Part shown: one piece after another, positions 14,405 through 30,236 of the stretch
How positions within the stretch are numbered: the first letter of the stretch is position 1
Layout of the letters: each line of letters begins with the position of its first letter
IMG/VR virus record: IMGVR_UViG_3300045988_062804
Reading direction: 5' to 3' (one strand)
DNA length: 64,000 nucleotides
From: a virus
The notes under the pieces: model-generated
The model's input: the letters and a program-made list of their open reading frames with translations, nothing else
Databases searched by the model: none
What the model was told of the DNA's origin: nothing
Program-made: the position numbers and the translations under genes

Positions 14405-14433
14405 GCTAAACATAGTAAAAATCACTTATTACA

Positions 14434-14573: not shown

Positions 14574-14603
14574 GAGCGTACATCTAAGTATGTACGCTAA
14601 TTC

Positions 14604-14686: not shown

Positions 14687-14691
14687 CAAAT

Positions 14692-14730
14692 AGTCCTATT
14701 GTTAGTAATAACAGTGGGACTTATTCTTTC
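14692..14730 (+). terminator. 13-bp hairpin with GUAA tetraloop closing the tRNA island (possible terminator)
   Basis: AGTCCTATTGTTA-GTAA-TAACAGTGGGACT followed by TATTCTTTC. Confidence 0.4.
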
Positions 14731-14798
14731 TAAACAACAAGATTCTCAGTTAGTACTACAAAGATTAGCATTTGCAAATGTTTTATGTAAAATGATTT

Positions 14799-15176: not shown

Positions 15177-15179
15177 TCT

Positions 15180-16127: not shown

Positions 16128-16137
16128 TAGTAGATGA

Positions 16138-17244
16138 ATGAATGAAATCGTATTAGGCTCGTTCTTTGGTGACGAGGGTAAAGGACAAACTGTCCATAAT
16201 CTGTGTAAGACACATCCGAGAGAAGAAACAATAGTTATTCGCTTTAGTGGTGGACACCAAGTAGGACATACTGTAAGGCATGGAAAGCTTGAACACACAT
16301 TTAGTAATTATGGTAGTGGTACTTTGCTAGGGATACCAACGTACTGGTCTAGTTACTGTACAGTAGACCCTATTACTACTATGAAGGAGTTGGTTGATTT
16401 AAATAAAATGGGGGCAAACCCTGAGATTATTTATCACCCACTCTGCGAGGTTGTTACTCCCTTTGACGTTATTAGTCAATGGAATAATGAGGACAACCTT
16501 AGACATGGTACTGTAGGGACTGGTTTCAAATCTGCTCTTGATAGAGTAGCTGCTGGTTATCATATTACAGTTCGAGATTGTGCTAATATCATGGTTTTAA
16601 GAACCAAGATAGCATCACTTATCAAGAACTATTATGATTTTAGTTCCAACCTTCCAATGTACAATATTGATGAATGGTGTGTTAAAGTGTATGAGTATTT
16701 CAAGTCCGTAACTGTACATGACGAGAGTATTTTAACTCGTTATAAGTACAAGGTATTTGAAGGCTCACAAGGTATATTATTAGACCAGAGGTTTGGTATA
16801 ATGCCTTATTGCACTCCAAGCAATACCACTTGTCAAAATGCTGTGGAGATTATTAATAGGATTAGAAAAGAATCTAAGAACCACTTAGATAGAATGACGG
16901 AAGAGATAACAGACCATGTGTATGTTATCAGACCATATATCACTAGACATGGTAATGGTCCAATTCCTTCTACTAAACCTGTTAGAGAAGTAAATGACCC
17001 TAATAATAAGTTCAACGAGTTTCAAAAGACTCTTAGAGCTGTAGAGTTTGATGTGAATTTATTCCAGCACTCTTTATTAGTTGATTCTACTTTCATTCCA
17101 CACCATTACACTCACAGAAGAGTATTAGTTATTACTCATAGAGATGAAATCACATCTCAGTTTAATGATGAACTTCTATCTGGTGATTGGGAGGAACAAT
17201 TCAACAGCATACGAACATCTTATTATGACAAACTCACTGTTTGA
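16138..17244 (+). CDS. adenylosuccinate synthetase-like protein (short PurA/PurZ-type, 368 aa)
   Basis: N-terminal P-loop GDEGKGQ, SGGHQVGHT, GTVGTGFK: the PurA signature order. It is about 60 aa shorter than bacterial PurA. Confidence 0.75.
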   Translation: MNEIVLGSFFGDEGKGQTVHNLCKTHPREETIVIRFSGGHQVGHTVRHGKLEHTFSNYGSGTLLGIPTYWSSYCTVDPITTMKELVDLNKMGANPEIIYHPLCEVVTPFDVISQWNNEDNLRHGTVGTGFKSALDRVAAGYHITVRDCANIMVLRTKIASLIKNYYDFSSNLPMYNIDEWCVKVYEYFKSVTVHDESILTRYKYKVFEGSQGILLDQRFGIMPYCTPSNTTCQNAVEIINRIRKESKNHLDRMTEEITDHVYVIRPYITRHGNGPIPSTKPVREVNDPNNKFNEFQKTLRAVEFDVNLFQHSLLVDSTFIPHHYTHRRVLVITHRDEITSQFNDELLSGDWEEQFNSIRTSYYDKLTV

Positions 17245-17259
17245 CATAGTATATTATAA

Positions 17260-17354
17260 AAACGACATACAGCAAGCAATCATACTGACTTTCAAATAGT
17301 AAAACCCTCTGCTGCCCATTGCGGAGGTTAAAGAGTTGAATGGGAATGTCGTTT
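17260..17354 (+). ncRNA. ACAGCAA-box element with internal pseudoknot candidate
   Basis: AAACGACAT-ACAGCAA ... ATGTCGTTT (9 bp). Hairpin CCTCTGC-tgCCCATTg-GCGGAGG, whose loop can pair with AATGGG at 17340-17345. Confidence 0.5.
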
Positions 17355-17361
17355 GTTTTAT

Positions 17362-17433
17362 TGGGCTATAGTGTAACGGTTAGCACACAACACTTTGACT
17401 GTTGTAGTCCAGGTTCGAATCCTGGTAGCCCAA
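17362..17433 (+). tRNA. tRNA-Gln(TTG)
   Basis: Acceptor TGGGCTA/TAGCCCA (U1:A72 as in bacterial Gln), stem CAACA/TGTTG, loop CTTTGAC. Confidence 0.85.
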
Positions 17434-17448
17434 CTAGGAGATAATCTT

Positions 17449-17751
17449 ATGAAGGCAATGAAGGATAAGAAGAAATTCGGAGGATGTTCCTTAACATCTA
17501 AGAATCGTAGCTGTAAGAAATTCGGCTGGAGTTATGATAAGGAAACAAGAAGAATCTGGAGGATTGAAGCTAAACGTATGGCTCATAAAGTACTTATGCA
17601 TCTACCTATCAGTAGGGAAGAGATTCAGAAAGCGTGGAGTAATCCATATATGAACCTTTCTGAACTTGGTGTTCCTTATGTGTGGGATGGCGTAGGCTAT
17701 TATGAAAGATGGGTTGAGCAAGTGTACAAAAAATTAAATAACGTAACATGA
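17449..17751 (+). CDS. hypothetical basic W/R-rich protein
   Basis: Start moved to the ATG at 17449, because 17395 lies inside tRNA-Gln; FGWSYDKETRRIWRIEAKRMAHKVL. Confidence 0.5.
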   Translation: MKAMKDKKKFGGCSLTSKNRSCKKFGWSYDKETRRIWRIEAKRMAHKVLMHLPISREEIQKAWSNPYMNLSELGVPYVWDGVGYYERWVEQVYKKLNNVT

Positions 17752-17909
17752 TTTATGCAAGAGTAATTCTAGTGGTGCTTATTATACTAATATTAGTATA
17801 CTATGCTATGGTGGTTGCACACCTCTCTGGTATTATATACCTTACGAGTAGGAAAGTGACCTTCGCCAAACTGTGTATTCCATTTTATTATTGGGTACAT
17901 CAGGATTAA
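17748..17909 (+). CDS. small membrane protein (53 aa)
   Basis: ATGA-coupled; MIYARVILVVLIILILVYYAMVVAHLSGIIYL. Confidence 0.45.
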   Translation: MIYARVILVVLIILILVYYAMVVAHLSGIIYLTSRKVTFAKLCIPFYYWVHQD

Positions 17910-17940
17910 TGATAATGTTTTAATGTAAATAAGTAGAAAA

Positions 17941-19164
17941 ATGAATCAACCTAAAGTAAGTAAAAGTTCAATCTTTGCTATTTTGGCAGGAGTAATCGTA
18001 GTACTGTTAGTCTGCATGGCAGGTTCACTCTTTGAAGATGCTGATAAGTCTAAGAACTATGTTTGTCAGATGCCTATGTCTGGTAAATACGTTGTATGGA
18101 CAGATGGTGGTCTTCAGTGGCAAGGCTTTGGTAACAAGCACGAGTATTTCAAAACTTCTCAGATAGAGTTCGTTGACTGGAAAGAAGTCAGTGAAGGTAA
18201 TTATATTGCATCTGGTGAGAACCCAGCAGCTTCACTTACCTTTAATGATAAGGGTAAGGGATTTATTATTGGTTCTTTCCGAGTTGTTATGCCAAATGAC
18301 GATGCTAATATGAAGAAAATTCAGCAGGACTTCGGTTCAGAGAAGGCATTGATAGCAAACTTAATTAAACCTACTCTATACAAGGTTGTAACATCTTGTG
18401 GTCCTCTGATGTCATCATTGGAATCTGTATCTGAAACAAGAACTGACCTTATTGCTTACATCACTGACCAGCTTAATAACGGAGTATACAAAACTGTTGT
18501 AGTTCGTGATTCTGTTACTAATGAAATTACTGGTGAGAAGGAATTGAGAGCTAAGGCACAGATTGTTGCTGATGCTAACTCTCCAAGTGGTTATAAACGT
18601 CAAGAAACATCACCGTTCAGTCAGTATGGTATTACCTGTGGATTGGTATCTATTTTGGATATTAAATATGATGGAGCTACTCAATCTCAGATTGATGCCC
18701 AAAAGCAAGCTAACTTAGCCGTAATAACTTCTAAGACTAAATCTTTGGAAGCAATTCAAAGAACTGTTCAGATTACTGAAGAGGGTAGAGCAGCAGCTGA
18801 GAGAGCTAAATGGGAACAAGAGAAAGAGAAGGCTGTAGCAGTTACTAAGGCTCAGCAAGAGTTTGAAGTAGCTGAACTAGAAGCTAAGAAAGCAAAGCAA
18901 GTTGCTTTGAAGGTTCAAGCTGAAGGTGAAGCTAAGGCAGCAGCTAATAGAGCATTAGTATCAGCAGGTTTAACTCCAGCTGAAAGAGCTGAGTGGGATT
19001 ATAAGACAGCTGTAGGAGTTGCACAAGCTCTAGCAGAATCTAAAGTGTCTTGGGTTCCATCTGTGATGTTTGGAGGAGGCAGTTCAAGTAATTCAGCTAT
19101 GGATGCTGTAGGCTTGAAGATGTTACTGGATATTACTAAGTCTTTGGAAAAGACAAGTAAATAA
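17941..19164 (+). CDS. SPFH/band-7 (flotillin/HflK-like) membrane protein
   Basis: N-terminal TM helix, central globular part, and an Ala/Glu/Lys-rich coiled coil (AQQEFEVAELEAKKAKQVALKVQAEGEAKAAANRA). Confidence 0.55.
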   Translation: MNQPKVSKSSIFAILAGVIVVLLVCMAGSLFEDADKSKNYVCQMPMSGKYVVWTDGGLQWQGFGNKHEYFKTSQIEFVDWKEVSEGNYIASGENPAASLTFNDKGKGFIIGSFRVVMPNDDANMKKIQQDFGSEKALIANLIKPTLYKVVTSCGPLMSSLESVSETRTDLIAYITDQLNNGVYKTVVVRDSVTNEITGEKELRAKAQIVADANSPSGYKRQETSPFSQYGITCGLVSILDIKYDGATQSQIDAQKQANLAVITSKTKSLEAIQRTVQITEEGRAAAERAKWEQEKEKAVAVTKAQQEFEVAELEAKKAKQVALKVQAEGEAKAAANRALVSAGLTPAERAEWDYKTAVGVAQALAESKVSWVPSVMFGGGSSSNSAMDAVGLKMLLDITKSLEKTSK

Positions 19165-19170
19165 AAACAT

Positions 19171-19277
19171 AAATACGCAATGAGGAGGGCAGGTGTGTAG
19201 AGTTCTACAACATACTGAGGGTTTGGAGTCTGAGACGGTAAGAACAAACTGGGTAAAGACTAAGTAATTGCGTATTT
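19171..19277 (+). ncRNA. helix-closed structured RNA upstream of the split tRNA
   Basis: AAATACGCAAT (19171-19181) pairs with ATTGCGTATTT (19267-19277), 11 bp. Confidence 0.4.
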
Positions 19278-19321
19278 ACGGACCTATAGCTCAGCCAGGT
19301 CAGAGCAGCTAATTATGAGTC

Positions 19322-20015
19322 AGATAGGGACGTATCCCCTCAAGCTTATACCTTGTAGAAAGGGTAGTCGGTCGCACGTGGGTTCAAGCCCCACCGTCCC
19401 TACAACTTCTGGATTGAATTTTTAGTTTTGCACCAAAACATTTGGTATTATGATTATTTTCATATATATTTGTATATGAATTACAATGATTATAATACAC
19501 AGAAGTTAAGAGGTTTAAAGCGCAAATTAGAGCTAGTAAAATCTCGTGGTGGTAAATGTGAACTATGCGGCTATGATAGAAACATAGCTGTTCTAGAATT
19601 TCACCATATCAATCCAGATGAGAAAGAGTTTCAGTTAGATATGAGACATTTATCTAATACAAGTCTAGAAAGGCTTAAAGAGGAAGCAGATAAATGTCAA
19701 CTTCTATGCGCTAATTGTCATAGAGAAGTACATAACCCTCACTTGGGAATGGACGAAGTTGAAGATTTAGTTAATACTGAAGCTAAAGATAAGACGTCTT
19801 TTGAAAATATGACTGGGTCTGTATGCCCAGTATGCGGCAAAAGATTTCCTAAATCTAAGGGTAAGATATACTGTTCTAAGGAATGCAGAGATGCTGATAA
19901 ACATTATCCTTCTCTAGAAGAAGTAAATGAGCAGTACGAAATACTTAAGAATTGGGAGAAAGTTGCTCAGCATTTTGGATTAACTCGCAGAGTTATTCAA
20001 GGAATAAGAAAGAAA
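19322..20015 (+). mobile_element. intron-like or mobile insertion carrying a tRNA-like minihelix and an HNH endonuclease gene
   Basis: Bounded by the 10-bp inverted repeat above; contains 19326-19402 and ORF 19476..20024. Confidence 0.4.
19326..19402 (+). ncRNA. tRNA-like element inside the insertion (acceptor + T-arm canonical, rest atypical)
   Basis: AGGGACG ... GTGGG-TTCAAGC-CCCAC-CGTCCCT-A. No clear D-arm; 8-nt loop TGTAGAAA on stem TACCT/GGGTA. Confidence 0.4.
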
Positions 20016-20024
20016 GACTCATAA
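19476..20024 (+). CDS. HNH homing-type endonuclease
   Basis: GGKCELCGY...LEFHHINP...DKCQLLCANCHREVH; paralogue of 9415..9951. Start set to the ATG at 19476. Confidence 0.8.
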   Translation: MNYNDYNTQKLRGLKRKLELVKSRGGKCELCGYDRNIAVLEFHHINPDEKEFQLDMRHLSNTSLERLKEEADKCQLLCANCHREVHNPHLGMDEVEDLVNTEAKDKTSFENMTGSVCPVCGKRFPKSKGKIYCSKECRDADKHYPSLEEVNEQYEILKNWEKVAQHFGLTRRVIQGIRKKDS

Positions 20025-20080
20025 TCAGGAGGTCGGGGGTTCAAAGCCCTCTAGGTCCACTTCTTTAAAAACTATCGCTT

Positions 20081-20455
20081 ATGAAACATTTATTACTAAT
20101 ACTAATGTTTATTCCTTTAGCTTTATATGGTCAACATAATGTTACGGCAACGTATTATCATGCAGGACCAAAACATGGTTTATCATGGATTACGGCTAGT
20201 GGAAATAGAATTAGTGTTAAGAAACTAAATGCTGGTAAGTTAAGATGGGTGGCGCTATCACATAACTTATTAAAGCATTATGATTATGGAGATACTATTA
20301 TAGTAGTATCTAATAACCCTAAGCTTAGAGGTAAATGGGTAGTAATGGACAAGATGCACAAGAGACACTATAATAAGATAGATTTCTTGACTCCATCTGG
20401 AAAGAATTTAGGAATGTTAAAACCAACTAAAGTGAAGATAAGAAAGAAGAAGTAA
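20081..20455 (+). CDS. secreted RlpA/3D-domain (double-psi beta-barrel) protein, lytic-transglycosylase-like
   Basis: Signal peptide MKHLLLILMFIPLALYGQ, then ATYYHAGPKHGLSWITASGNRI...GDTIIVVS...GKWVVMDKM. Confidence 0.5.
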   Translation: MKHLLLILMFIPLALYGQHNVTATYYHAGPKHGLSWITASGNRISVKKLNAGKLRWVALSHNLLKHYDYGDTIIVVSNNPKLRGKWVVMDKMHKRHYNKIDFLTPSGKNLGMLKPTKVKIRKKK

Positions 20456-20460
20456 GTTAT

Positions 20461-20542
20461 GCCTCAGTGGTGGAATGGTAGACACGCATGTCTTAGGAAC
20501 ATGTGGGCTTAGCCCGTGTCGGTTCGAGTCCGACCTGGGGTA
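20461..20542 (+). tRNA. tRNA-Leu(TAG)
   Basis: Acceptor GCCTCAG/CTGGGGT, stem CATGT/ACATG, loop CTTAGGA, long variable arm. Confidence 0.85.
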
Positions 20543-20568
20543 CAAAACATTATTAAATAACAGGAAGT

Positions 20569-20940
20569 ATGAAAGAGATTAAAGATTTTATTCAAGAACT
20601 ATGTGAGTGTGCTAAGCCAAGTATTAATGGTAGCATAGTTACATTAGAAGAAGCTACTAGAATTGTAGCAGAAGCGTTTACTGCTGGCATGAACTTTCAA
20701 GACCATGAGATAAAGAGTAAACACAAGTTCAGACACTTTGAAAAGGAAGACATTGATAAGGTAGCTGGATTTAAGTTCATTCCCAATCCTGCCAACGGAG
20801 GTGATGATGATTATATCATTGCTGATATGGTATTTAAGGAATATACATACGGAGAACATGGTGAAGAGCCATTCTGTGATGTTAATGCCTTAAATAGGGA
20901 CTTTGGGGAACTAAGGTTGAAAGAACTTATAAGACTGTAA
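20569..20940 (+). CDS. hypothetical protein (123 aa)
   Basis: ORF; no motif recognised. Confidence 0.55.
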   Translation: MKEIKDFIQELCECAKPSINGSIVTLEEATRIVAEAFTAGMNFQDHEIKSKHKFRHFEKEDIDKVAGFKFIPNPANGGDDDYIIADMVFKEYTYGEHGEEPFCDVNALNRDFGELRLKELIRL

Positions 20941-20945
20941 GAAAT

Positions 20946-21102
20946 AAATCCACCACTCAAGTTGGTATGAGGTGAGAAATTGCTTAGAGACTGTTGATGT
21001 CTATTAGACGTAGTAGACTATAGTACAGTTGCGGTTAAAAATTGACAGCACTACCAATCCTGTCAGGCGGATTTCAGAACGTAGTTAACGCTACGTTCTT
21101 TT
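20946..21102 (+). ncRNA. helix-closed structured RNA with its own terminator
   Basis: AAATCCACC (20946-20954) pairs with GGCGGATTT (21066-21074). Then AGAACGTAG-ttaacg-CTACGTTCT-TTT (21076-21102). Confidence 0.45.
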
Positions 21103-21104
21103 AA

Positions 21105-21179
21105 GGCGACATAGCTCATTTTGGTTAGAGCGTGGGAGTCATAACCCCAAGGTGGTTGGTTCGAATCCAACTGTCGCCA
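21105..21179 (+). tRNA. tRNA-Met/Ile2(CAT)
   Basis: Acceptor GGCGACA/TGTCGCC, stem TGGGA/CCCCA (A31:C39 mismatch), loop GTCATAA, T-arm GTTGG-TTCGAAT-CCAAC. Confidence 0.75.
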
Positions 21180-21200
21180 CTATACCTTAATTTTATATGT

Positions 21201-22433
21201 ATGAGTGACAAAGGCTTATTATTTAAGAAGAGAAAGAATAATCATGGAAGACATCATAAATGCAGTAGTGGAAGTGGTTTCCCCAGACATAGCATGAACC
21301 ACTATCCTGGTACTCATTTAGGAATGAAGCTAAGATATTCTAAACCATCTGTAGGGCGTCTTTATTGTGAATGGGGTCCAAATCGTGGTTATCTAAGAAC
21401 AAATAGAATAACTGGTTTTATTAATAAGTTCATAGGAAAACCTTATAATGATTTGGTTAAAGCATTCTACGCTCTTATTAAAGACCTAAGAGATAGCCAT
21501 AAAGAGGTAGGACTTAGTGACCTTGAATGGCACTTCGAACAGTTTAGATATAGAAGATGGAGAGGTGATTATTATGTTGATGATGATGGATTAGTTCAAA
21601 TAGTCCACCCAGAATCGGTGAGAAAGCAAACTAGTCATATTAATAAGCAACAAGTAGCATACAATAAGAAGGTTAAGATTCCAGACTTTGGTAGAGTGTC
21701 TCTTCCAAGAACTCCTAGCAGAGAAACTAATAACAGGTATTGTCTTCCAGAATATGGCAGTGTAAGTTATGAGAAACCTCAATATGATGCTCCTAGATTC
21801 TTAGGCAATTACTGGTGTGATATGGATGGTAAGATGCTATTCTTACCTGTATATCATGTTCCAGGTACTAATATGTATGCTAAGTATTGGACTGATACAC
21901 ATAACATTCGTAAGCCTAAAGAGTATAAAGAGGGTTATTACTACAGTAGCTACCCACAGAGATGGGATAGGAAAGGGTATTGTGATAGATTCAGTGATAT
22001 GTTTAGACCTGGAGATTCTGCATTTAAGTGGGCGCAAGGTGTAGAAAATGGGTGGGTTGTTCCAATCATCCCATTTAGCAAGAGGTCTGAGTGGTATGGT
22101 CTTAGATATGCTATGTATAAAAGAATGTATCACAGCAAACTAGTACTAATGCCAAATACTAAGGAACTGACTAGTGTGAGAGAATTAGTTCAGAGATGCA
22201 GGGAACACCTATCTCAATGCGAAGACCCTGAAAACTGGTGGTATGGTAAGGCTGAAAGATGTCAGAAAGAACTTGACGAAGCCTTAGAGAAACTTAGGAA
22301 GACACCTAACATGGCTTACTTTGAAGTGGGATATGGTCAGCTGTATCCTATGGTCAAAAGATACGATTATGAAAAAGCATTAAGAATCTATGAGCAGGAG
22401 CAGAAAGAAACCAGTATGGAAGGACAAGAGTAA
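21201..22433 (+). CDS. hypothetical protein (410 aa, basic, W/Y-rich)
   Basis: Start moved to the ATG at 21201 (21132 lies inside the tRNA); no motif recognised. Confidence 0.6.
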   Translation: MSDKGLLFKKRKNNHGRHHKCSSGSGFPRHSMNHYPGTHLGMKLRYSKPSVGRLYCEWGPNRGYLRTNRITGFINKFIGKPYNDLVKAFYALIKDLRDSHKEVGLSDLEWHFEQFRYRRWRGDYYVDDDGLVQIVHPESVRKQTSHINKQQVAYNKKVKIPDFGRVSLPRTPSRETNNRYCLPEYGSVSYEKPQYDAPRFLGNYWCDMDGKMLFLPVYHVPGTNMYAKYWTDTHNIRKPKEYKEGYYYSSYPQRWDRKGYCDRFSDMFRPGDSAFKWAQGVENGWVVPIIPFSKRSEWYGLRYAMYKRMYHSKLVLMPNTKELTSVRELVQRCREHLSQCEDPENWWYGKAERCQKELDEALEKLRKTPNMAYFEVGYGQLYPMVKRYDYEKALRIYEQEQKETSMEGQE

Positions 22434-22644
22434 CCATGTTTGGTACAACAGAATTGTCCGCAGAGTGCAGAGAATGCAAGTTAAGCAGATAGCAAGTCTT
22501 AATGATATTTTAGAATACGAAATCTCACAACCTAATGAATTAATAAATGATTGGGATGTCTGTGATTGGAAGTTTGATTATAGAAATCCACGATGGAGAG
22601 ATAATCATACTCCAGAAGAGTTAAAGAGGTTTTGTTGTAAATAA
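22390..22644 (+). CDS. hypothetical basic W/R-rich protein (84 aa)
   Basis: PVWKDKSNHVWYNRIVRRVQRMQVKQ; overlaps the upstream gene by 44 nt. Confidence 0.45.
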   Translation: MSRSRKKPVWKDKSNHVWYNRIVRRVQRMQVKQIASLNDILEYEISQPNELINDWDVCDWKFDYRNPRWRDNHTPEELKRFCCK

Positions 22645-22804
22645 TATATTCCCAATCTTAGTCAAAGGAATTGAAATATTAGGCTAGGCGATGACAACTA
22701 AGTAGAGTTGAGCGTATGTAATAAGACGTGTTCCGAAGTACAAGGAATGGGGTGGGCGCAGAATACCTCTTTAGACTATCTTGTATAGTCAATCACTGCT
22801 TCAT

Positions 22805-22890
22805 GGCTCGATGGCGAAATTGGTAGACGCCCCAGATTTAAGCTCTGGTGTCCAGAAATGGGCGTGTGGGTTCGAATCCCACTCAGGCTA
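22805..22890 (+). tRNA. tRNA-Leu(TAA)
   Basis: D-arm TG-GCG-AAATTGGTAGAC-GC, stem CCAGA/TCTGG, loop TTTAAGC, long variable arm. Acceptor GGCTCGA/TCAGGCT (one C:A mismatch). Confidence 0.8.
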
Positions 22891-22929
22891 CACCCTTGAA
22901 TTTACTCTTAATCCTTAAATATAACTGAT

Positions 22930-23160
22930 ATGAATATCTTTGGTAACACAGCAGCAGGATTTAGTAAGGAAGTAGACAACGCAATGTCTGCATTTAAGAG
23001 TACTATTACAAAGCTTAAAGCTACAGCTGAGAAAGCAGTAGCAACTAAAGCTGAGAAGCAAGATGAAATTAAGAAGCTGGAATCTGAATGTTCAGCTCTT
23101 GATGGAGTATCTACTAAGGCTAATAACTTGGCTGCCAAGTTGGAAGCATTATTTGAATAA
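22930..23160 (+). CDS. hypothetical protein (76 aa, coiled coil)
   Basis: ORF; Ala/Lys/Glu-rich. Confidence 0.5.
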   Translation: MNIFGNTAAGFSKEVDNAMSAFKSTITKLKATAEKAVATKAEKQDEIKKLESECSALDGVSTKANNLAAKLEALFE

Positions 23161-23162
23161 TC

Positions 23163-23564
23163 ATGAAAGTTGAGAATATAATTGACCACCCAATAGACTT
23201 CACCACCATTGAGGGATGCAAATCCTTTACTGAATGGGTTAACGGAGATATATCTAATGCCTTCTATTTAGGTTTCCTAAGAGAAGAATTTAGTGAATAC
23301 GTTCCCAAGATGAATGAATGTGAAGAGGGTATTCAATTCCTAAAGAGTATGGCTACAGCAAACACTAATGCTAAGAAATACTTAAAGGAACTCGCTAGAT
23401 TGATGGAACCTTACTTGCAAAGTAAAGATGGATTTGTAATTCTAGATATGATTAACGACGTACTAGGGAGAGTATCCTTAGAGAAGAAAGATGATATTTA
23501 CGGAGTTGCCTTTGTATTAGGCATTTACACCGACTATCTATTTACTACGCAAGCTGAGGCATGA
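23163..23564 (+). CDS. hypothetical protein (133 aa)
   Basis: ORF 3 nt after the upstream stop. Confidence 0.55.
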   Translation: MKVENIIDHPIDFTTIEGCKSFTEWVNGDISNAFYLGFLREEFSEYVPKMNECEEGIQFLKSMATANTNAKKYLKELARLMEPYLQSKDGFVILDMINDVLGRVSLEKKDDIYGVAFVLGIYTDYLFTTQAEA

Positions 23565-23971
23565 GTTCTTATACTGTTTATACTGACGGTGCATATTCCA
23601 ATACCAGAAATCAAGGTGGCATAGGGTTTGTCATTTTGAAAGAAGGTAAAGAAGTTGCTAGATATAGTAAAATGTATAAGAATACTACAAACCAAAGAAT
23701 GGAACAGATGGCAGCAATAGTTGCCCTTGAATCTATTACTACACCTTCAGAAGTTACCATAGTTTCTGATTCTCAGTATGTGGTCTGCACATATACTAAG
23801 AATTGGAAGAGAAAGGCGAATCTGGATTTGTGGAAGAGATTTGATGCAGCAATCGCATTCCATACTAAGGTTGACTTCAGTTGGACTAAGGGTCACGCTG
23901 AAGACAAATATAACAAGATTTGTGATAAGCTAGCACAAGGAGCTAGTAAGACTATAGAGATTACTAATTAA
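23561..23971 (+). CDS. rnhA: ribonuclease H (RNase HI type)
   Basis: YTDGAY ... TNQRMEQMAAIVALE ... IVSDSQYV ... KGHAED..NKICDKLA (DEDD catalytic pattern). Confidence 0.8.
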   Translation: MSSYTVYTDGAYSNTRNQGGIGFVILKEGKEVARYSKMYKNTTNQRMEQMAAIVALESITTPSEVTIVSDSQYVVCTYTKNWKRKANLDLWKRFDAAIAFHTKVDFSWTKGHAEDKYNKICDKLAQGASKTIEITN

Positions 23972-23991
23972 TAATTTGTAAATTCTTCTAT

Positions 23992-24123
23992 ATGAAATAC
24001 AAGAAAATGGTAGCTAACTTAGAAGCAGCTAAGAGATGGTGGGATGCCCAACCTGAATCATTCAAGAAGGCAACTACACGTCCTGGCTCTGTCAAATGCA
24101 AATCTGTTAATAGAGGTAAATAA
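23992..24123 (+). CDS. possible small basic protein (43 aa)
   Basis: ATG ORF MKYKKMVANLEAAKRWWDAQPESFKKATTRPG... Confidence 0.3.
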   Translation: MKYKKMVANLEAAKRWWDAQPESFKKATTRPGSVKCKSVNRGK

Positions 24124-24270
24124 TACCGATTCGTTAAGGGAAGTGGGAAGACGGTAACCCTTACTCAGCATCTATGCTGAAACCCACCACGAGAGGTATC
24201 GGTGACTCTCATGCCCATGTATAACTACACTGGGTTTCGGGGCAGGAGGTACTTGATTGCTACCCTGCCC
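24124..24270 (+). ncRNA. structured RNA (nested hairpins plus pseudoknot candidate) upstream of tRNA-Lys(CTT)
   Basis: TACCGAT/ATCGGTG closing helix. Inner helices AAGGG/CCCTT and CAGCAT/ATGCTG; GTGGG (24143-24147) can pair with CCCAC (24183-24187). Then GGGCAGG...CCTGCCC. Confidence 0.4.
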
Positions 24271-24277
24271 TGCGTAT

Positions 24278-24349
24278 GACCCTATAGCTTAGTTGGTAGA
24301 GCTGCGGACTCTTAATCCGTAGACCAGGGTTCGAATCCCTGTGGGGTCA
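24278..24349 (+). tRNA. tRNA-Lys(CTT)
   Basis: Acceptor GACCCTA/TGGGGTC, stem GCGGA/TCCGT, loop CTCTTAA. Confidence 0.85.
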
Positions 24350-24386
24350 CAATAAAGTTAAAGTAATAAAAAGAAGTAATCCATGT

Positions 24387-24420
24387 ATGCCATTTGCTCG
24401 TGAGAGTGGGTGGCATTTTT
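24387..24420 (+). repeat. conserved GNRA-capped hairpin (copy e, variant) with T-run
   Basis: ATGCCA-ttt-GCTC-GTGA-GAGT-ggg-TGGCAT-TTTTT. Confidence 0.45.
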
Positions 24421-24438
24421 CATTTAACACTTATATTT

Positions 24439-24729
24439 ATGATTGGATTTTTAAGTTATTTAGTTAGTAAGGGGTTTACACCTTACAGAAAGATTGGTGA
24501 CAAATATGTCAAATGTAGTCTTGATAACTACTTCTCATCTACAATGCCTGGATATTTAGATATTAGGTTAATAAAAGGTAAGAAAGAAGTTGTCTATGGA
24601 TTACATGAGAGAAACCATCCACCTACATTGATATATCCTAGACCACAGTGGGTAGTCTATGACTATGAAATGGATAGATTATTCCAGACCACATCATTCG
24701 AAGATATATACAATCTGTTGCACTTTTAA
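24439..24729 (+). CDS. hypothetical protein (96 aa)
   Basis: ATG at 24439 preferred, because the longer ORF starts inside the hairpin. Confidence 0.5.
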   Translation: MIGFLSYLVSKGFTPYRKIGDKYVKCSLDNYFSSTMPGYLDIRLIKGKKEVVYGLHERNHPPTLIYPRPQWVVYDYEMDRLFQTTSFEDIYNLLHF

Positions 24730-24731
24730 AA

Positions 24732-24803
24732 GTCCCCATAGGTCAACGGATAGACCAAGAGTTTCCTAAACTCTAAATGAAGGTTCGATTCCTTCTGGGG
24801 ATA
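24732..24803 (+). tRNA. tRNA-Arg(CCT)
   Basis: Acceptor GTCCCCA/TGGGGAT, stem AGAGT/ACTCT, loop TTCCTAA. Confidence 0.85.
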
Positions 24804-24825
24804 CTAATTTAACGTATCAAAGATT

Positions 24826-25155
24826 ATGAAAGTATATGATGTTATAAGAATTGCTAAAGATACCTACATAAGTGAAACTAGTCACCTATGTTATCCAGGT
24901 ATGTGTTGGTGTCTTAAAGTGGCAGCAACTAAAGGATTGGGTTTTAAAGAGAAGAATAGGAAAGAGCATCCTTCTTATAAGGATTTAGTTACTAATATTC
25001 CAGAATTTAATCCAGAGTTCCTTAAAGCTACTAAAACTGTACAACACGCAGGTTTGGACTTCTGGTGGGAGAACACAGATGTGAAGTCTAGGCTTAATGC
25101 CTTTGAAGTACTAGAAGGTATCTATAAGGAGAGTGTTAGAGAATTTGAATATTAA
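24826..25155 (+). CDS. hypothetical protein (109 aa)
   Basis: ORF; no motif recognised. Confidence 0.55.
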   Translation: MKVYDVIRIAKDTYISETSHLCYPGMCWCLKVAATKGLGFKEKNRKEHPSYKDLVTNIPEFNPEFLKATKTVQHAGLDFWWENTDVKSRLNAFEVLEGIYKESVREFEY

Positions 25156-25161
25156 AGTATA

Positions 25162-25580
25162 ATAGAGGGGATGTGGGCTTGGAGGTAGCCATCATTTAAA
25201 GAGTTGCGAGCGGAGGTTATGGTATATCCTTAGGTCATGTATAGCTAACATGATGTAGACAAGCGTGGAGGTATAGAACTTACTAGTCCTTCCGTAGAGC
25301 CGCAGGGAGGCACAAGCATTAATCTCGGAGAGTAGTATTCCAAGTCTGAAACGACGAGGGTTCCTATACGTTGCTCAATGTGATATTAAGTGTCGGAGCC
25401 AATTATTGATAAGTTCCAACAGTACGAGAGGAGCCTGGAATTAAGATTGGGAGGTACGTGATACCTTAGCTGTTAGTAGGAAAACGAAAGTCAGTTAGTA
25501 CATACGTTAAGTCACTGTGTACATACGTTCAATGTCAATAATCGCCCTTAGAGCATTTGGTGTAACAGCACACCCTCTAT
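25162..25580 (+). ncRNA. ~420-nt structured RNA containing a sarcin-ricin-loop-identical 12-mer
   Basis: ORF-free. Closing helix ATAGAGGG (25162-25169) / CCCTCTAT (25573-25580). AGTACGAGAGGA at 25421-25432 is flanked by TTCCA/TGGAA. Confidence 0.5.
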
Positions 25581-25584
25581 CTTT

Positions 25585-25656
25585 AGTCCTATAGTTTAAC
25601 GGATAGAATACCATACTACGGATATGGAGGTCTCAGTTCGATTCTGAGTAGGACTA
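25585..25656 (+). tRNA. tRNA-Arg(ACG)
   Basis: Acceptor AGTCCTA/TAGGACT, stem CCATA/TATGG, loop CTACGGA. Confidence 0.85.
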
Positions 25657-25674
25657 CATCTAAAGTTATTTATT

Positions 25675-26067: not shown

Positions 26068-26667
26068 ATGGCAATTAACTTGCAAAAAGGTGGACGTATT
26101 GACCTTTCTAAGGAGTCCACAGCTAGCGTGTTTAGAATTGGTTTGGGCTGGGATGCAGCACAACCTGGTAAGGAATTTGACTTGGATGCTATGGCTCTGA
26201 TGGTAAAAGCTGATGGTAAGTGTCTGAGCGACAATCACATGGTATTCTACGGTAACTTGGAAGACCCTTCTAAATCTGTAAAACACTCTGGTGATAACCG
26301 TACTGGTGCTGGTGACGGTGATGATGAAACTATCACTATCGACACTACTAAGGTTCCTGCTGAAGTACAGGAAATCATAGTACTGGTGAATATCCACGAT
26401 GCCAAGAACCGTCAGCAGAACTTCGGCATGGTAAAGAATGCCAAAGTAAATCTGTATGAAGGTGCAGAAGGCAATAACATTCTTGCTAAGTACGACTTGG
26501 AAGAAGATGCTTCTATGGACAGAGCGTTGGTATTCTGTAAGCTATATCGCAAGGACGGAAGCTGGAGATTCCAGGCAGTAAACGAGGGTAAAGGTAATTA
26601 CCAGTCAGTGCTGTTGTGTGACATTCTGTCAGGTTACGGCATTGATGCTGGTCCAAAGGATTTATAA
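26068..26667 (+). CDS. terD: TerD-family stress protein
   Basis: MAINLQKGGRIDLSKE, GLGWD, FDLDAMALMV, HSGDNRTGAGDGDDETITID, ALVFCKLYRKDGSWRFQAV. Confidence 0.85.
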   Translation: MAINLQKGGRIDLSKESTASVFRIGLGWDAAQPGKEFDLDAMALMVKADGKCLSDNHMVFYGNLEDPSKSVKHSGDNRTGAGDGDDETITIDTTKVPAEVQEIIVLVNIHDAKNRQQNFGMVKNAKVNLYEGAEGNNILAKYDLEEDASMDRALVFCKLYRKDGSWRFQAVNEGKGNYQSVLLCDILSGYGIDAGPKDL

Positions 26668-26670
26668 GCC

Positions 26671-27318
26671 ATGATAAATCTGTCTAAAGGTGGTAGAGTA
26701 AATCTGTCGAAGGATGATAACGGTAACAAGTTATCTAAGGTTTTCTTTGGTGCGAACTGGGGAGCTATCAAGTCTGGTGGCTTCTTAGGTTTCGGTGGAG
26801 GTACTGAGGCTGTAGACCTCGATGCTTCTGTAGTTCTTATGGATGCTAATAAGCGTAAGCTTGAAACTGTTTACTTTGGTCATAAAGATTCAAGTGACAG
26901 AGCTATCCATCACTCTGGTGATGATTTGGTAGGTGATACCAATGGAGACGACGGAATGGATAATGAAACTATCTCAGTAGAACTGGATAGAATTAGACCA
27001 GAAGTTGAATATGTTGCATTCATCTTAAATTCATTTCGTCACCAAAGATTCGATAAGATTCCTTATATGGGATTACGAATCTATACGACATCTGACGGGC
27101 GTCCTGTTACCCGTCCAAACTCCAATCCTAACGTATTGGCTAAGTATAACCTAGACAATGATAGTAAAGACTCTGATACAACATTCGTTGGTCGTGAAGC
27201 TATCATCTTAGGATATGCTTATCGTAAGGATGGAGAGTGGAAGTTCAAGGCTCTTGGTAACACAGGCTCTTGGCAGTCTATAGGAGAAATCGAAAGGGTA
27301 TTACCCAATTTTATTTAA
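26671..27318 (+). CDS. TerD-domain protein (second paralogue)
   Basis: MINLSKGGRVNLSK, VDLDASVVLMD, HHSGDDLVGDTNGDDGMDNETISV, YRKDGEWKFKALG. Confidence 0.8.
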   Translation: MINLSKGGRVNLSKDDNGNKLSKVFFGANWGAIKSGGFLGFGGGTEAVDLDASVVLMDANKRKLETVYFGHKDSSDRAIHHSGDDLVGDTNGDDGMDNETISVELDRIRPEVEYVAFILNSFRHQRFDKIPYMGLRIYTTSDGRPVTRPNSNPNVLAKYNLDNDSKDSDTTFVGREAIILGYAYRKDGEWKFKALGNTGSWQSIGEIERVLPNFI

Positions 27319-27752: not shown

Positions 27753-30236
27753 ATGAATATAGAATTGTTAAAGGGCTTGACAGATGCTGAGGTTAATCAT
27801 AGTAGAGAGTGTCATGGCTCTAATACACTAACCCCACCTAAGAGAGACCCTTGGTATGTACTTTTCTTTGAGAAGTTTAAAGACCCCTTAATTCAAATAT
27901 TGAGTGTTGCTGCAGTCATTGCACTAATACTAGGGGTTATTAAATCAGAATATCTTGAACCCGTAGGAATCATAGCTGCTATACTATTGGCAGTAACTAT
28001 CGGTTTTATAAATGAGTATAGCGCATCTAAGAAATTTGATGTGCTGACTACAAGTTCTGATGATACACTTGTCAAAGTAAGGCGAAACGGTATAGTAACT
28101 CAAGTAGCTCGTAAAGACCTTGTTGTTGATGATGTAGTATTGCTAGCGGCTGGTGAAGAAATTCCTGCTGATATAACAGCTTATGAATCCCACAATCTAA
28201 AGGTCAATGAGTCTGTATTAACTGGAGAATCCAAGGCTGTTACTAAACAACCTAAAGAGGAAGGTGAATTAAATGCTACTTATCCCTCATGGCTACTACT
28301 GAAAGGTACTATCGTTGAAGAAGGTACTGTAACAGGTATAGTCAATGCTGTAGGTGATAACACTGCATTCGGACAGACAGCTCGTAAAGCTGCTGAGATT
28401 ACTGATACAGAGACTCCACTAAACAAGCAGCTTAATGGTCTTGCTGACCTTATCAATAAGATTGCATTTGGTGCTGCTGGTTTCCTTATTCTTGCCTTAT
28501 TGGTGAGATACTTCTTTATAGAACAAGCTTATGTAGGACAAGATTGGATGCAGATTACTAACGATTTGTTATCCTTCCTAATGATTGCAGTTGCATTAAT
28601 TGTAGTTGCAGTACCAGAAGGATTACCCATGGCGGTTACTTTAGCATTAGCATACTCTATGAAGAGAATGTCTAAGGCTAATAACTTAGTTCGTAAGATG
28701 CACGCTTGTGAAACTCTCGGAGCAACTACTCTTATTCTAACCGATAAAACGGGCACTCTAACAGAGAATAAGATGAAAGTTGTGAATGAGGTAATGCCTA
28801 ATAGGGCATACATTACCATTAACACTTTAGCCAATTCTACAGCATATGTAGATGGTGATAAGACTGTTGGTAATCCTACAGAAGGTGCTATAATTAAGTA
28901 TATGGATGCAGGTGATTTACTTGATGATATAAGGAGGGATAACTCCCCAGTGTTCAGACTGGATTTCTCAAGTAAGACTAAGTTCATGATGTCTGTTGTT
29001 AAACAAGATGATGCCTTTATATCCCTGATAAAGGGTGCTCCCGAAGTTGTCAGAAGTATGTGTAATGCTACTGATATTGAAGGAGAGGTAAATGAGCAGA
29101 ACAAAGGTAGAAGAGTTATAGGCTTTGCTTATAAGGAATCTATGACTTTAGAAGATGCTCAGAAACTAAATGGCTTCACCTATAACGGATTCATGGCTAT
29201 TGAAGACCCAATCCGTAAGGACGTACCAGATGCAGTTAAAGCTGCTAAAGAGGCTGGCATTGAAGTTAAAATCATTACTGGTGATAATCCAGCTACAGCC
29301 ACTGAAATAGCGAGACAGGCTGGATTAAGTGAACATCCCGTAGCAATGTTGGGCAGCGATATAAAAGAACAGGTAAACCCTCTACGAGTAGTAGATGTGT
29401 TTGCTCGTACTAAACCAGAGGATAAACAAACTCTGGTAACTCGCTTCCAACAAATGGGAGAAGTAGTCGCTATGACTGGTGATGGTACTAATGATGCACC
29501 AGCTTTAAATCATGCCGAAGTAGGTATTGCCATGAATAATGGCACTGATGTAGCTAAAGAGGCTGCTGATATTATCCTACTCGACAATTCGTTCCCATCC
29601 ATCATCTTAGGAGTGAAGTGGGGAAGAAGTCTGTACAAGAATATACAGCACTTCATTCTATTCCAATTGACCATTAACGTAGTAGCTATTCTTATAGCTT
29701 GTATTGGTCCGTTTATTGGAGTAGACCTACCCTTCACTGTTACTCAGATGTTATGGGTTAATTTAATCATGGATACATTCGCTGCATTAGCTTTGGCAAC
29801 TGAACCAGCCAATGATGCAGTTATGAAGGATAAACCAAGAAGTCCTAAAGCATTCATTATCACTAAGAAAATGTGGTATGAAATCTTTGGAGTTGGTATT
29901 ATATTCTTCATATTCTTAGTCACTTTACTCTATACTAAAGCAGTATCTCTAACAGAGTTCTTTACGATATTCGTATTGTTACAATGGTGGAATCTGTTCA
30001 ATGCTAGAGTGTTCGGACAAAGGAGAAGTATCTTTGATGGCTTACTAAAGAATCCAGCGTTTGCTGGAATAGCTTTAGTTATTCTCGTCGGTCAATTCTT
30101 AATCGTTCAATATGGTGGTGCTATGTTTAGAACCGAACCTCTCTCTATGGAGACTTTGGGTTTGATTTTAGCTGGAACCTCTGTAGTTACGGTTGTTAGG
30201 GAGTTGGCTTATCAATTAGGCAAAATTTTCAAATAG
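27753..30236 (+). CDS. P-type (P2, Ca2+-transporting-type) ATPase
   Basis: TGES, DKTGTLT, TGDGTNDAPAL, about 10 TM helices, and an N-terminal cation-ATPase-N segment. Confidence 0.9.
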   Translation: MNIELLKGLTDAEVNHSRECHGSNTLTPPKRDPWYVLFFEKFKDPLIQILSVAAVIALILGVIKSEYLEPVGIIAAILLAVTIGFINEYSASKKFDVLTTSSDDTLVKVRRNGIVTQVARKDLVVDDVVLLAAGEEIPADITAYESHNLKVNESVLTGESKAVTKQPKEEGELNATYPSWLLLKGTIVEEGTVTGIVNAVGDNTAFGQTARKAAEITDTETPLNKQLNGLADLINKIAFGAAGFLILALLVRYFFIEQAYVGQDWMQITNDLLSFLMIAVALIVVAVPEGLPMAVTLALAYSMKRMSKANNLVRKMHACETLGATTLILTDKTGTLTENKMKVVNEVMPNRAYITINTLANSTAYVDGDKTVGNPTEGAIIKYMDAGDLLDDIRRDNSPVFRLDFSSKTKFMMSVVKQDDAFISLIKGAPEVVRSMCNATDIEGEVNEQNKGRRVIGFAYKESMTLEDAQKLNGFTYNGFMAIEDPIRKDVPDAVKAAKEAGIEVKIITGDNPATATEIARQAGLSEHPVAMLGSDIKEQVNPLRVVDVFARTKPEDKQTLVTRFQQMGEVVAMTGDGTNDAPALNHAEVGIAMNNGTDVAKEAADIILLDNSFPSIILGVKWGRSLYKNIQHFILFQLTINVVAILIACIGPFIGVDLPFTVTQMLWVNLIMDTFAALALATEPANDAVMKDKPRSPKAFIITKKMWYEIFGVGIIFFIFLVTLLYTKAVSLTEFFTIFVLLQWWNLFNARVFGQRRSIFDGLLKNPAFAGIALVILVGQFLIVQYGGAMFRTEPLSMETLGLILAGTSVVTVVRELAYQLGKIFK

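Follow-up and report, generated by a model that had tools for sequence, protein, structure and literature searches.

The segment at positions 25,162–25,580 on the plus strand of the window, the whole 64,000-nucleotide stretch of viral DNA analysed here, carries at its ends a faithful copy of the GTPase-associated centre (GAC) of 23S rRNA, namely the end of helix 42, helix 43, and helix 44. From its sequence we infer that it is the gene for a structured, putatively stable phage RNA of ~419 nt. Between the two parts of the GAC lies a hairpin resembling the sarcin-ricin loop (SRL), which is a real, selected feature. With the GAC and the SRL on one transcript, the RNA joins both rRNA elements of the ribosome’s docking site for translational GTPases. 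Approximately 90 distinct relatives (97–589 nt) were recovered from phage contigs, all with the GAC core, and the identity of the family as a GAC- and SRL-mimicking RNA is, in our judgement, almost certain. Genes for tRNAs, tmRNA, some ribosomal proteins, and translation factors are known from phages, yet we are aware of no report of a virus that encodes a functional rRNA domain; what is new here is an abundant, phage-specific RNA family that does so. Full-text searches of the literature returned no account of a GAC or SRL mimic from a phage, and a survey of 10,006 viral structured-RNA candidates reported no rRNA-like candidate (PMC10690425).

A sequence-only reading of this DNA had described the segment as an ORF-free, structured RNA closed by an 8-bp helix. 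The longest ORF within 25,162–25,580 is indeed at most 35 aa, and protein coding was rejected for want of any longer one. The closing helix also stood: ATAGAGGG (25,162–25,169) pairs with CCCTCTAT (25,573–25,580), the two strands corresponding to the distal end of 23S helix 42 (~1048–1055) and to ~1104–1111, and seven of its eight pairs change on both sides among 73 distinct homologues. As for the structured RNA, the helices are supported by covariation, but single-sequence folding was no better than shuffles (z = −0.49), with neither strand beating them, and so the support for structure comes from covariation and not from folding energy. A scan for promoters and terminators was uninformative.

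The flanks of the SRL sequence had been thought not to resemble 23S rRNA, which does not hold. Positions 25,169–25,202 match E. coli 23S rRNA 1055–1088 at 30 of 34 nucleotides (E = 1e-6), with G25169 aligned to G1055; the match spans helix 43 and reaches into the beginning of helix 44. A profile built from 28 long-form relatives likewise matches 23S 1051–1088 (nhmmer, E = 8.9e-12). Since the rest of helix 44, the 1091–1104 segment, is found at 25,560–25,573, the element is a copy of the GAC, the uL11/thiostrepton domain. Its 5′ half (25,170–25,204) holds the helix 43 hairpin at 25,171–25,195 (1057–1081, with the 1065–1073 loop at 25,179–25,187), the 1082–1086 turn at 25,196–25,200, and G1087, A1088, G1089, and U1090 at 25,201–25,204. 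The 3′ part (25,556–25,572) starts with a UUUG linker (25,556–25,559) and continues as the 3′ half of helix 44, in which G1091 is 25,560, the GUAACA loop (1093–1098) is 25,562–25,567, and A1103 is 25,572. Helix 44 is thus not continuous, a variable domain of 351 nt (25,205–25,555, plus strand) being inserted between U1090 and G1091.

Covariation among 73 distinct elements supports a three-way junction in which the helix 43 and helix 44 hairpins are closed by helix 42. In the GAC core, 89% of cells are paired vs. 65% in shuffles (without phylogenetic correction), and in 19 of 23 pairs both sides have changed. For covariation, the score is 0.612 vs. 0.166, a value that none of 500 shuffles reached (again without phylogenetic correction), and slid controls score at most 0.18. 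For example, the 1058:1080 pair is UA in 44 elements, GC in 14, AU in 13, and CG in two; 1082:1086 is UA in 53, CG in 11, and AU in seven; and 1091:1100 is GC in 73 of 73. The 1092:1099 pair (CG in 39, UA in 30, UG in four) tracks nucleotide 1072, and the tertiary triple 1072/(1092:1099) covaries in 72 of 73 elements (C with C-G in 39, U with U-A in 29, U with U·G in four, and one exception; Fisher p = 5e-20, without phylogenetic correction). We take this covarying triple to be the tertiary signature of the rRNA GAC, as which it was reportedly described by Conn, Gutell, and Draper in 1998. U1060, A1077, A1088, G1093, U1094, and A1098 are invariant, and G1071 (72/73) and A1095 (71/73) nearly so.

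Compared with the GAC of E. coli 23S rRNA (1051–1108, helices 42–44, the uL11/thiostrepton-binding 58-mer), the phage element shares the sequence, the pairing of helices 43 and 44, the 1082:1086 pair, the triple, and the tertiary-core nucleotides. It differs in being a free-standing gene rather than part of a 2.9-kb rRNA, and in adding a domain of 45 to >350 nt and the UUUG linker between 1090 and 1091. All 73 elements have A at position 1101, where rRNA has U, and position 1067, a universally conserved A in rRNA, is not conserved in the family (A in 38, G in 32), being G in the window element and many other family members. Helix 42 is represented by a short stem whose sequence is arbitrary, and hence the uL10 site is not reproduced. 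A1101, the UUUG linker, and the fixed insertion site are invariant features specific to the phage family, and they indicate a single old origin and long maintenance.

These data bear on whether the element could be a non-functional remnant, either a piece of host 23S rRNA, captured by the phage and since decayed, or a tRNA-array sequence acting as a passive spacer or processing signal. Its sequence is of rRNA descent and its single-sequence fold does not exceed shuffles, as such a remnant would predict. We regard this explanation as exceedingly improbable, because almost every helix, and the tertiary triple as well, shows compensatory changes among 73 distinct sequences whose phages infect many hosts, because the phage-specific invariants are kept, and because the remainder of the element resembles neither 23S nor 16S rRNA. 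Moreover, when the window is compared with the Lak genomes at the DNA level, the element is the only conserved segment. The decayed rRNA fragment, raised in the sequence-only reading as the case that would overturn it, is ruled out on the same grounds of covariation, phage-specific invariants, and lack of other 23S or 16S likeness. A genuine 23S gene, intact or decayed, was also rejected from the search results, as nhmmer matches are confined to 1051–1088 and 2652–2666 and no Rfam LSU match was found.

The inserted domain has a structure of its own. At its base, UGC (25,205–25,207) pairs with GCA (25,553–25,555) in a helix that covaries at each position (UA32/GC27/AU12; GC40/AU18/UA10; CG36 and GC17 among others), followed by a conserved GAG/UUAGA internal loop. 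A k-turn was considered for this loop, and by inspection the consensus did not fit. Further in, GCGG (25,210–25,213) pairs with CCGC (25,300–25,303), with changes on both sides at all four pairs (RNAalifold columns 61–64/204–207). A long-range helix (25,402–25,410 with 25,534–25,542) closes the SRL-bearing sub-domain, and eight of its nine pairs change on both sides (columns 326–334/471–481). Within this sub-domain, the SRL-like hairpin (25,413–25,441) has a stem of GTTCCA (25,413–25,418) and TGGAAT (25,436–25,441), which shows compensatory changes in homologues (CG13/GC4/UG4/AU/UA; AU17/CG4/GC1; UA18/GC3/CG1), in line with the earlier observation that the SRL 12-mer is presented on a stem. 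The 12-mer itself, AGTACGAGAGGA at 25,421–25,432 on the plus strand, is exact (AGUACGAGAGGA, 23S 2654–2665), with 0.02 such matches expected per window and two of 100 shuffles reaching one. The long-form profile also matches 23S 2652–2666. On the 3′ side lies a conserved hairpin (25,452–25,466; columns 380–385/391–396), all six pairs of which change on both sides. Similar C-GAGA-G units previously pointed out at 4424 and 24,188 are attributable to chance, as CGAGAG occurs 14 times where 12.9 are expected.

Like the rRNA SRL (23S helix 95, 2653–2667), the phage hairpin presents the AGUA/GAA bulged-G motif and a GNRA tetraloop, here GAGA, on a Watson-Crick stem. It departs from the rRNA in its stem sequence and in the flanking non-canonical region; its loop lies within a phage-specific sub-domain and has been lost or mutated in some lineages. 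Whether homologues keep the 12-mer had been named as a point on which the earlier interpretation could fail, and the answer is divided. An SRL-like motif with at most two mismatches is present in 31 of 34 long forms (exact in 14), the bulged G and GNRA loop are retained in 22 of the 34, and four carry a GGGA tetraloop, which is still GNRA. However, degenerate versions occur in the published Lak phages (Lak-A/B/C) and the L024 type, and none of the short forms, ~55 family members, has an SRL. The Lak-B sequence is AUUACGAGAGGA, i.e., a G2655U change, and that of Lak-A/C is AUUACAAGAGGA; G2655U abolished EF-G binding to an SRL oligonucleotide (PMC3496166). The GAC is the constant part of the family and probably carries its primary function.

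Known RNA families do not account for the element. It has no match in Rfam 15 at E ≤ 10, and at 15 further loci only tRNA and tmRNA reached the gathering score. GOLLD, ROOL, RNase P, group I and II introns, 6S RNA, and LSU rRNA are therefore unsupported, including the large-RNA families that the sequence-only reading had suggested scanning. GOLLD, ROOL, and phage tmRNA are often found beside tRNAs in phage genomes, and these, like phage tRNAs, are large structured or translation RNAs; nevertheless, none of the GOLLD, ROOL, or LSU rRNA covariance models matches the element. Nor did blastn and nhmmer searches of the inserts against E. coli 23S and 16S rRNA find any recurrent rRNA piece other than the SRL. 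A resemblance of 25,193–25,219 to 23S 2559–2587 was weak (E = 0.5), and both it and a by-eye impression of a helix 93-like ‘GAAACGACGAGGGUUCCUAU’ were unsupported by the profile search.

The family is large, widespread, phage-specific, and under clear structural selection. Carriers number >120 phage contigs vs. ~13 true elements in 185,579 species genomes, and most of those ~13 come from MAG contigs that contain tRNA arrays. Carriers also include cultured jumbo phages (GAP32, CBB, XacN1, XaC1, RSP15, pf16, ME3, and others), which infect Enterobacteria, Xanthomonas, Pseudomonas, Ralstonia, and Acinetobacter. The insertion point is identical throughout, and the insert is hypervariable, ranging from 45 to >350 nt and falling into 42 sequence clusters among 89 elements. 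Minimal members (97–130 nt) have little beyond the GAC and a hairpin of 45–80 nt. At the same locus, close relatives hold SRL-plus or SRL-less inserts, which looks like module swapping under changing selection. One could suppose that the GAC core, bound by the abundant uL11 of the host, is a mere nuclease-resistant handle, with the function residing in the exchangeable insert and the SRL being one cargo among many. The constant core, the hypervariable inserts, their exchange between close relatives, and the unchanging insertion point all agree with such a stability scaffold. Yet the insert of minimal members is only a short hairpin, and the 1093–1098 loop appears more conserved than we would expect for folding alone, and we consider this explanation quite improbable.

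The element lies in a tRNA array. A tRNA-Arg(ACG), noted previously as following it, occupies 25,585–25,657 on the plus strand and starts 4 nt downstream. In 63 of 90 elements the locus contains tRNAs on the same strand; a tRNA starts 3–11 nt downstream in 24 of 90, and one ends 3–13 nt upstream in 21 of 90. Elements thus lie in phage tRNA arrays, on the tRNA strand and with tRNA-like spacing, and tmRNA co-occurs with the element in the window and at two further loci (L108 and L125). Upstream, an ORF of 109 aa and unknown function occupies 24,826–25,155 on the plus strand. The RNA begins 7 nt past the stop codon of this ORF, which makes co-transcription of the two probable. Neither this ORF nor the flanking ORFs matched Pfam or PHROGs, and the position of the 109-aa ORF next to the element is conserved solely within the window’s own clade, beyond which no conserved partner protein gene adjoins the element. 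Genes for uL11, uL10, and uL6 were found neither in the window or the other loci nor in the element-bearing cultured phages. An autoregulatory leader of a ribosomal protein was rejected, as tRNAs or small unrelated ORFs lie beside the element and none of these three genes is present in the window or loci. Such leaders (e.g., the L10 leader) similarly copy the rRNA site of a ribosomal protein and capture that protein, but they are cis-acting 5′ UTRs in cells, while the phage element sits among tRNAs with no ribosomal protein gene nearby.

From this arrangement, the RNA would be transcribed together with the tRNAs and trimmed by tRNA-processing enzymes; 5′ processing of the downstream tRNA by RNase P would leave its 3′ end 4 nt past the closing helix. 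It would then fold like the GAC and bind host uL11, and as a free decoy it would compete with ribosomes for host proteins recognising either the GAC or the SRL. The GAC folds autonomously, and its tertiary structure is recognised by L11 (PMC6239185). Binding of uL11 is predicted to be probable, although the helix 44 insertion and the U1101A change could alter it. For the decoy mode of action itself, the case as judged from sequence comparison appears evenly balanced. A decoy had already been suggested from the SRL 12-mer; selection on the SRL hairpin supports it, and the presence of the GAC in the same RNA makes the rRNA mimicry much stronger, while the degeneracy in Lak phages and the SRL-less majority speak against the decoy.

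To our knowledge, no anti-phage system attacking the GAC or the SRL is known, and Tre23 is a toxin that is secreted and acts between bacteria. Its ADP-ribosylation site is 1095–1098 in helix 44, and the SRL is targeted by VapC toxins and ricin (PMC8661411). Among the possible targets of the decoy, an rRNA-directed toxin or defence effector is the one that we would tentatively hold likeliest. Family members hardly differ in the 1093–1098 loop but vary freely at A1067, a contrast that favours a toxin. On the other hand, a stoichiometric RNA would counter a catalytic toxin only weakly, unless it were very abundant or a preferred substrate. Two further observations go against the decoy reading in general, namely that most family members lack the SRL, which in Lak-A/B/C and the L024 type is degenerate, and that no conserved partner protein gene lies beside the element.

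Instead of a decoy for toxins, the RNA may be a sponge that sequesters free or exchanging host uL11 and thereby blunts the stringent response. Activation of RelA requires uL11 (relC), and ribosomes lacking uL11 could not activate RelA, so that no (p)ppGpp-mediated shutdown would limit phage production. The sole universally conserved part of the family is the fold that uL11 recognises, and minimal members are approximately the GAC and a hairpin. Position 1061 is most often A (34/73), and U1061A stabilises the isolated GAC fold. Since element-bearing phages lack a uL11 of their own, any uL11 partner would be that of the host. Finally, in the RelA complex the thiostrepton loop and the SRL both touch the A/R-tRNA (PMC5829649). 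We still find this unlikely, as most uL11 is already bound to ribosomes with high affinity, the addition of the SRL in long forms and the diversity of inserts are left unexplained, and no alarmone-related gene was seen in the window.

The joining of both factor-binding-site elements in one RNA also raises the possibility that the long form binds IF2, EF-G, RF3, LepA, BipA, or RelA bivalently off the ribosome, as a trap or regulator that would shift initiation or elongation toward the phage. Isolated SRL RNA binds EF-G (Kd ~4–6 μM) and IF2 (0.67 μM) (PMC3496166), and the bulged G and GNRA loop are retained in the majority of long forms given above. In the ‘ribosome-in-pieces’ work (Munishkin and Wool 1997, as cited in PMC3496166), RNAs of the SRL and of the thiostrepton domain, each in isolation, are described as binding EF-G and IF2 off the ribosome. 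Those oligoribonucleotides were synthetic and separate, while the phage RNA is natural, joins both elements, and is maintained by selection. Against such a trap, A1067, the helix 43 contact for factors and tRNA, is unconserved, with a G in the window, the abundance of EF-G and EF-Tu is too high for titration, and most family members have no SRL, so that we give it little credence.

More speculatively, and with some doubt, a uL11-clamped GAC chassis with exchangeable RNA modules, of which the SRL is the commonest, could together with host stalk proteins form a ribosome-free, miniature factor-binding platform, trapping or mis-activating IF2, EF-G, RelA, or rRNA-directed defence toxins and giving the phage control of host translation and alarmone signalling. 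There is a partial parallel in pseudo-ToxI of phage PhiTE, which is said to be a phage RNA decoy against abortive infection that mimics an antitoxin RNA. In both cases a phage RNA would imitate a host RNA to neutralise a host protein, but the present RNA imitates rRNA instead.

As the element occurs in cultured jumbo phages, these readings are directly testable. The finding shows that phage tRNA arrays conceal non-tRNA genes overlooked by standard annotation, and a natural, compact RNA combining the GAC and the SRL would be useful for structural work on factor binding. If titration of uL11 or of translational GTPases is true, the family would represent a new route to translation takeover or to silencing of the stringent response. 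If the decoy reading is true, it would point to host factors or defences directed at the GTPase centre and the SRL, and to a new viral counter-strategy.

Compared by blastn with phage genomes, the Prevotella Lak megaphages match the window's sequence in the RNA segment only (window 25142–25559, ~70% identity), and a 42-nt piece is 93% identical to Xanthomonas jumbo phage XaC1. The 5' motif common to the relatives (GGATGTnGGCTTAGAAGCAGCCATCATTTAAAGAG) is the stretch of 23S rRNA around helix 43/44: window 25169–25202 aligns to E. coli rrlH 1055–1088 at 30 of 34 positions (E=1e-6), and the sequence-only reading was wrong to hold that the flanks are unlike 23S rRNA. The conserved 3' motif, TTTGGYGTAACARCACAC, is G1091–C1104, the remainder of helix 44 including the GUAACA loop. 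The element (25162–25580, +) is therefore a GTPase-associated centre (GAC) that an insertion, placed between U1090 and G1091, divides in two; in the window this insertion bears the sarcin-ricin loop (SRL). A profile built from 28 long-form relatives matches E. coli 23S at two sites only, 1051–1088 (E=8.9e-12) and 2652–2666, the SRL (E=0.081). The exact SRL 12-mer that had drawn attention to the segment, AGTACGAGAGGA, is indeed present at 25421–25432 (0.02 exact matches expected per window), where GTTCCA and TGGAAT form its stem; the helix that closes the element (ATAGAGGG with CCCTCTAT) is present too, and the stretch (25156–25584) has no ORF longer than 35 aa. The additional C-GAGA-G units reported elsewhere are chance occurrences (CGAGAG count 14, expected 12.9). 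As an interpretation, rRNA mimicry stands more strongly than was proposed, with the SRL as a secondary, lineage-variable module.

The 5' and 3' motifs, scanned as exact patterns against IMG/VR, gave 63 and at least 120 loci, and from the matches listed at least 90 complete elements, all distinct and 97–589 nt long, were extracted. In the shortest, the closing helix is followed by helix 43, UUAAAGAGU and an inserted helix or domain, and then by UUUG, the upper helix 44 with its 3' strand (G1091–A1103) and the closing helix again. When the cores of 73 distinct sequences from the matches listed are aligned, 89% of cells are paired, vs 65% in shuffles, and 19 of 23 core pairs have changed at both positions, with a covariation score of 0.612 vs 0.166 (0/500 shuffles; slid controls 0.10–0.18). 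A pseudogene reading is excluded because the helices covary, the folding energy of the window's segment being unremarkable taken alone (z=-0.49). The informative pairs are the rRNA's own: 1058:1080 (UA44/GC14/AU13/CG2), 1082:1086 (UA53/CG11/AU7) and 1092:1099 (CG39/UA30/UG4). The last is tracked by nucleotide 1072 (C with C-G in 39, U with U-A in 29, U with U.G in 4, with a single sequence departing from this; Fisher p=5e-20 without phylogenetic correction), in what we take to be the defining tertiary base triple of the folded GAC. U1060, A1077, A1088, G1093, U1094 and A1098 are invariant in these 73 sequences and G1071 and A1095 nearly so; A is commonest at 1061, and 1067 varies freely (A38/G32; G in the window). 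These patterns show an RNA whose sequence keeps the GAC's own sequence, pairing and tertiary signature, and in the long forms the SRL too. Invariants specific to the family are an A at 1101, the UUUG linker and an insertion site that does not move; they speak for one origin and against host rRNA having been captured several times.

The inserts form 42 sequence clusters among 89 elements from the matches listed, the largest (26 members) being the SRL-bearing type, and the SRL was their sole recurrent match to E. coli 23S and 16S (21 elements). Among 34 long forms (≥340 nt) in the matches listed, 31 carry the SRL motif within two mismatches, 14 of the 34 exactly, and four have a GGGA tetraloop. 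Two phage loci (L086 and L152) each have an element with two SRL-like motifs: the usual stem bears AAUACGAGAGGA, and a second motif, GGUACGAGAGGA or AGUACGAGAGGG, lies ~55 nt downstream. Other variants are AUUACGAGAGGA in Lak-B, AUUACAAGAGGA in Lak-A/C and AGUACAAGCGGA in the type of locus L024. The supported insert helices are the SRL stem, a 9-bp helix closing the SRL sub-domain, the hairpin after it and, close to the base of the insert, a 4-bp helix (92.8% of cells paired vs 70.8%; covariation 0.606 vs 0.196, 0/500, for a structure derived from the same alignment). The published Lak megaphages (L001–L005; Prevotella phages Lak-A1, A2, B2, B3 and C1) have the most divergent version: G2655U in Lak-B, G2655U with a non-GNRA loop in Lak-A/C, a helix 44 loop of GAGUAAA, not GUAACA, with 1091:1100 flipped to C-G, and a likewise altered helix 43 loop. 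Their element may be decaying or functionally changed.

Within the window's clade the locus order is 109-aa ORF, element, tRNA-Arg and 119-aa ORF, and the site carries either a 405-nt form with the SRL or a 205–208-nt form without it (L025, L046, L128, L136, L158, L166), in which an unrelated 152–155-nt insert replaces the 351-nt SRL domain. Several short versions (L025, L046, L166) have a closing helix identical to the window's, and by this comparison the variable module is swapped within one phage clade. One phage contig (L139) has two GAC elements ~1 kb apart, at 1128 and 2183; their lengths are 97 and 171 nt, and their inserts differ. Mid-size inserts of seven loci (L099, L107, L110, L120, L127, L130, L167) have motifs in common, among them ACCCC-hairpin-GGUAAGGC and GGGAAAAAUnnGGAUAG, which looks like a second recurrent module. 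Many subfamilies conserve an internal loop directly above the UGC/GCA base helix, an asymmetric one with GAG(Y) facing UUAGA (window 25208–25212 with 25548–25552); judged by eye, it matches the consensus of neither a k-turn nor a loop E.

The window's element lies towards the 3' end of an array of 34–36 tRNA genes (7622–25657), all on the + strand, between a 109-aa ORF (24826–25155) and tRNA-Arg(ACG) (25585–25657, +). One gene of this array, called by ARAGORN at 7766–7858, has a 2-nt anticodon that is undefined; several tRNAs are 84–93 nt long (e.g., Met 8818–8904, Asn 10114–10198, Thr 14604–14687), and one is detected by Rfam alone (19326–19402). Among the matches listed, 63 of 90 elements have same-strand tRNAs in the fetched locus and one has tRNAs solely on the opposite strand; a tRNA starts 3–11 nt downstream in 24 of the 90 (4 nt in the window) and ends 3–13 nt upstream in 21. 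Behaving as one of the array's own units, the element would be co-transcribed with the tRNAs and have its ends made by tRNA-processing enzymes. Several element loci also hold a tmRNA, near the element in L108 and L125 and at 2615–3117 (+) in the window, where its 503 nt are unusual against a 374-position model (93 bits). The remaining window genes concern replication, nucleotide metabolism, TerD proteins and a P-type ATPase; on the + strand, an adenylosuccinate-synthetase-like gene (16138–17244) lies within the tRNA region, and two tandem TerD-domain genes (26068–27318) directly downstream of the array are followed by the P-type cation ATPase (27753–30236). A RAGATH-34 RNA (4179–4281, +; 73.9 bits) lies ~310 nt upstream of a gene (4595–6397, +) for a 600-aa protein (domains DUF2828 and DUF7788), with which it may form an RNA-protein pair.

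A scan of the 3' motif against one genome per species for 185,579 bacterial and archaeal species gave 61 matches; ~13 are true elements, mostly on MAG contigs with tRNA arrays, and the others are chance matches in coding sequence. Cultured carriers include the enterobacterial phages Cronobacter GAP32, Pectobacterium CBB, Yersinia fHe-Yen9-03/04, Serratia BF and several Erwinia phages; Xanthomonas XacN1/XaC1/XbC2, Ralstonia RSP15, Acinetobacter ME3 and Aeromonas 4_4572; and Pseudomonas pf16, Milchi, Astolliot and UNO-G1W1. In their records the site is unannotated or lies under a CDS labelled "hypothetical protein" (Kaldavass, Milchi). No neighbouring protein family is conserved across subfamilies in the loci compared, and no uL11, uL10 or uL6 gene was found in the window, loci or carrier phages. 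In locus L099, a short bL12-like match (3437–3520; 54% over 28 aa, E=2e-4) lies ~2 kb from the GAC element; phage bL12-domain proteins are known, and phages acquire this stalk protein (PMC6375957). By comparative analysis, the element is a selected, phage-specific gene among tRNAs.

The GAC and SRL would fold as in rRNA, but the element does not qualify as rRNA, because no other part of it is like rRNA, an insertion breaks helix 44, and neither A1067 nor U1101 is retained. By analogy it would work like synthetic "ribosome-in-pieces" oligonucleotides and rRNA-mimicking r-protein leaders, but it differs from both as a free-standing viral gene. A scan of the segment against Rfam 15 gave zero matches even at E≤10, which sets aside GOLLD, ROOL and other Rfam families. 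No description was found in full-text literature searches or a 10,006-candidate viral RNA survey, with subscription and very recent work incompletely covered. Since neither search produced a match, we rate the element a new class of phage RNA.

The GAC folds autonomously and L11 recognises its tertiary structure (PMC6239185); with the SRL it makes up the factor-binding site (PMC2330231). The phage RNA would bind host uL11, and one possibility, ranked fourth, is a uL11-clamped scaffold for cargo modules. Possible too, and ranked third, is the trapping of low-abundance translational GTPases; a 27-nt SRL RNA binds EF-G (Kd about 4–6 μM) and IF2 (0.67 μM), and G2655U abolishes binding (PMC3496166). 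Titration of uL11 that relaxes the stringent response is the second-ranked possibility and best explains the minimal forms; in the RelA complex, the A/R-tRNA is contacted by the thiostrepton loop and the SRL (PMC5829649). We rank first, still as a possibility, rRNA-directed toxins or defence effectors: Tre23 ADP-ribosyltransferase targets the helix 44 loop (1095–1098), and VapC20/26 and ricin target the SRL (PMC8661411). This fits a nearly invariant helix 44 loop whereas A1067 varies, inserts that look modular in arms-race fashion, and co-location with tRNAs and tmRNA. We infer that the RNA would serve these phages as a decoy of the ribosomal factor-binding site.
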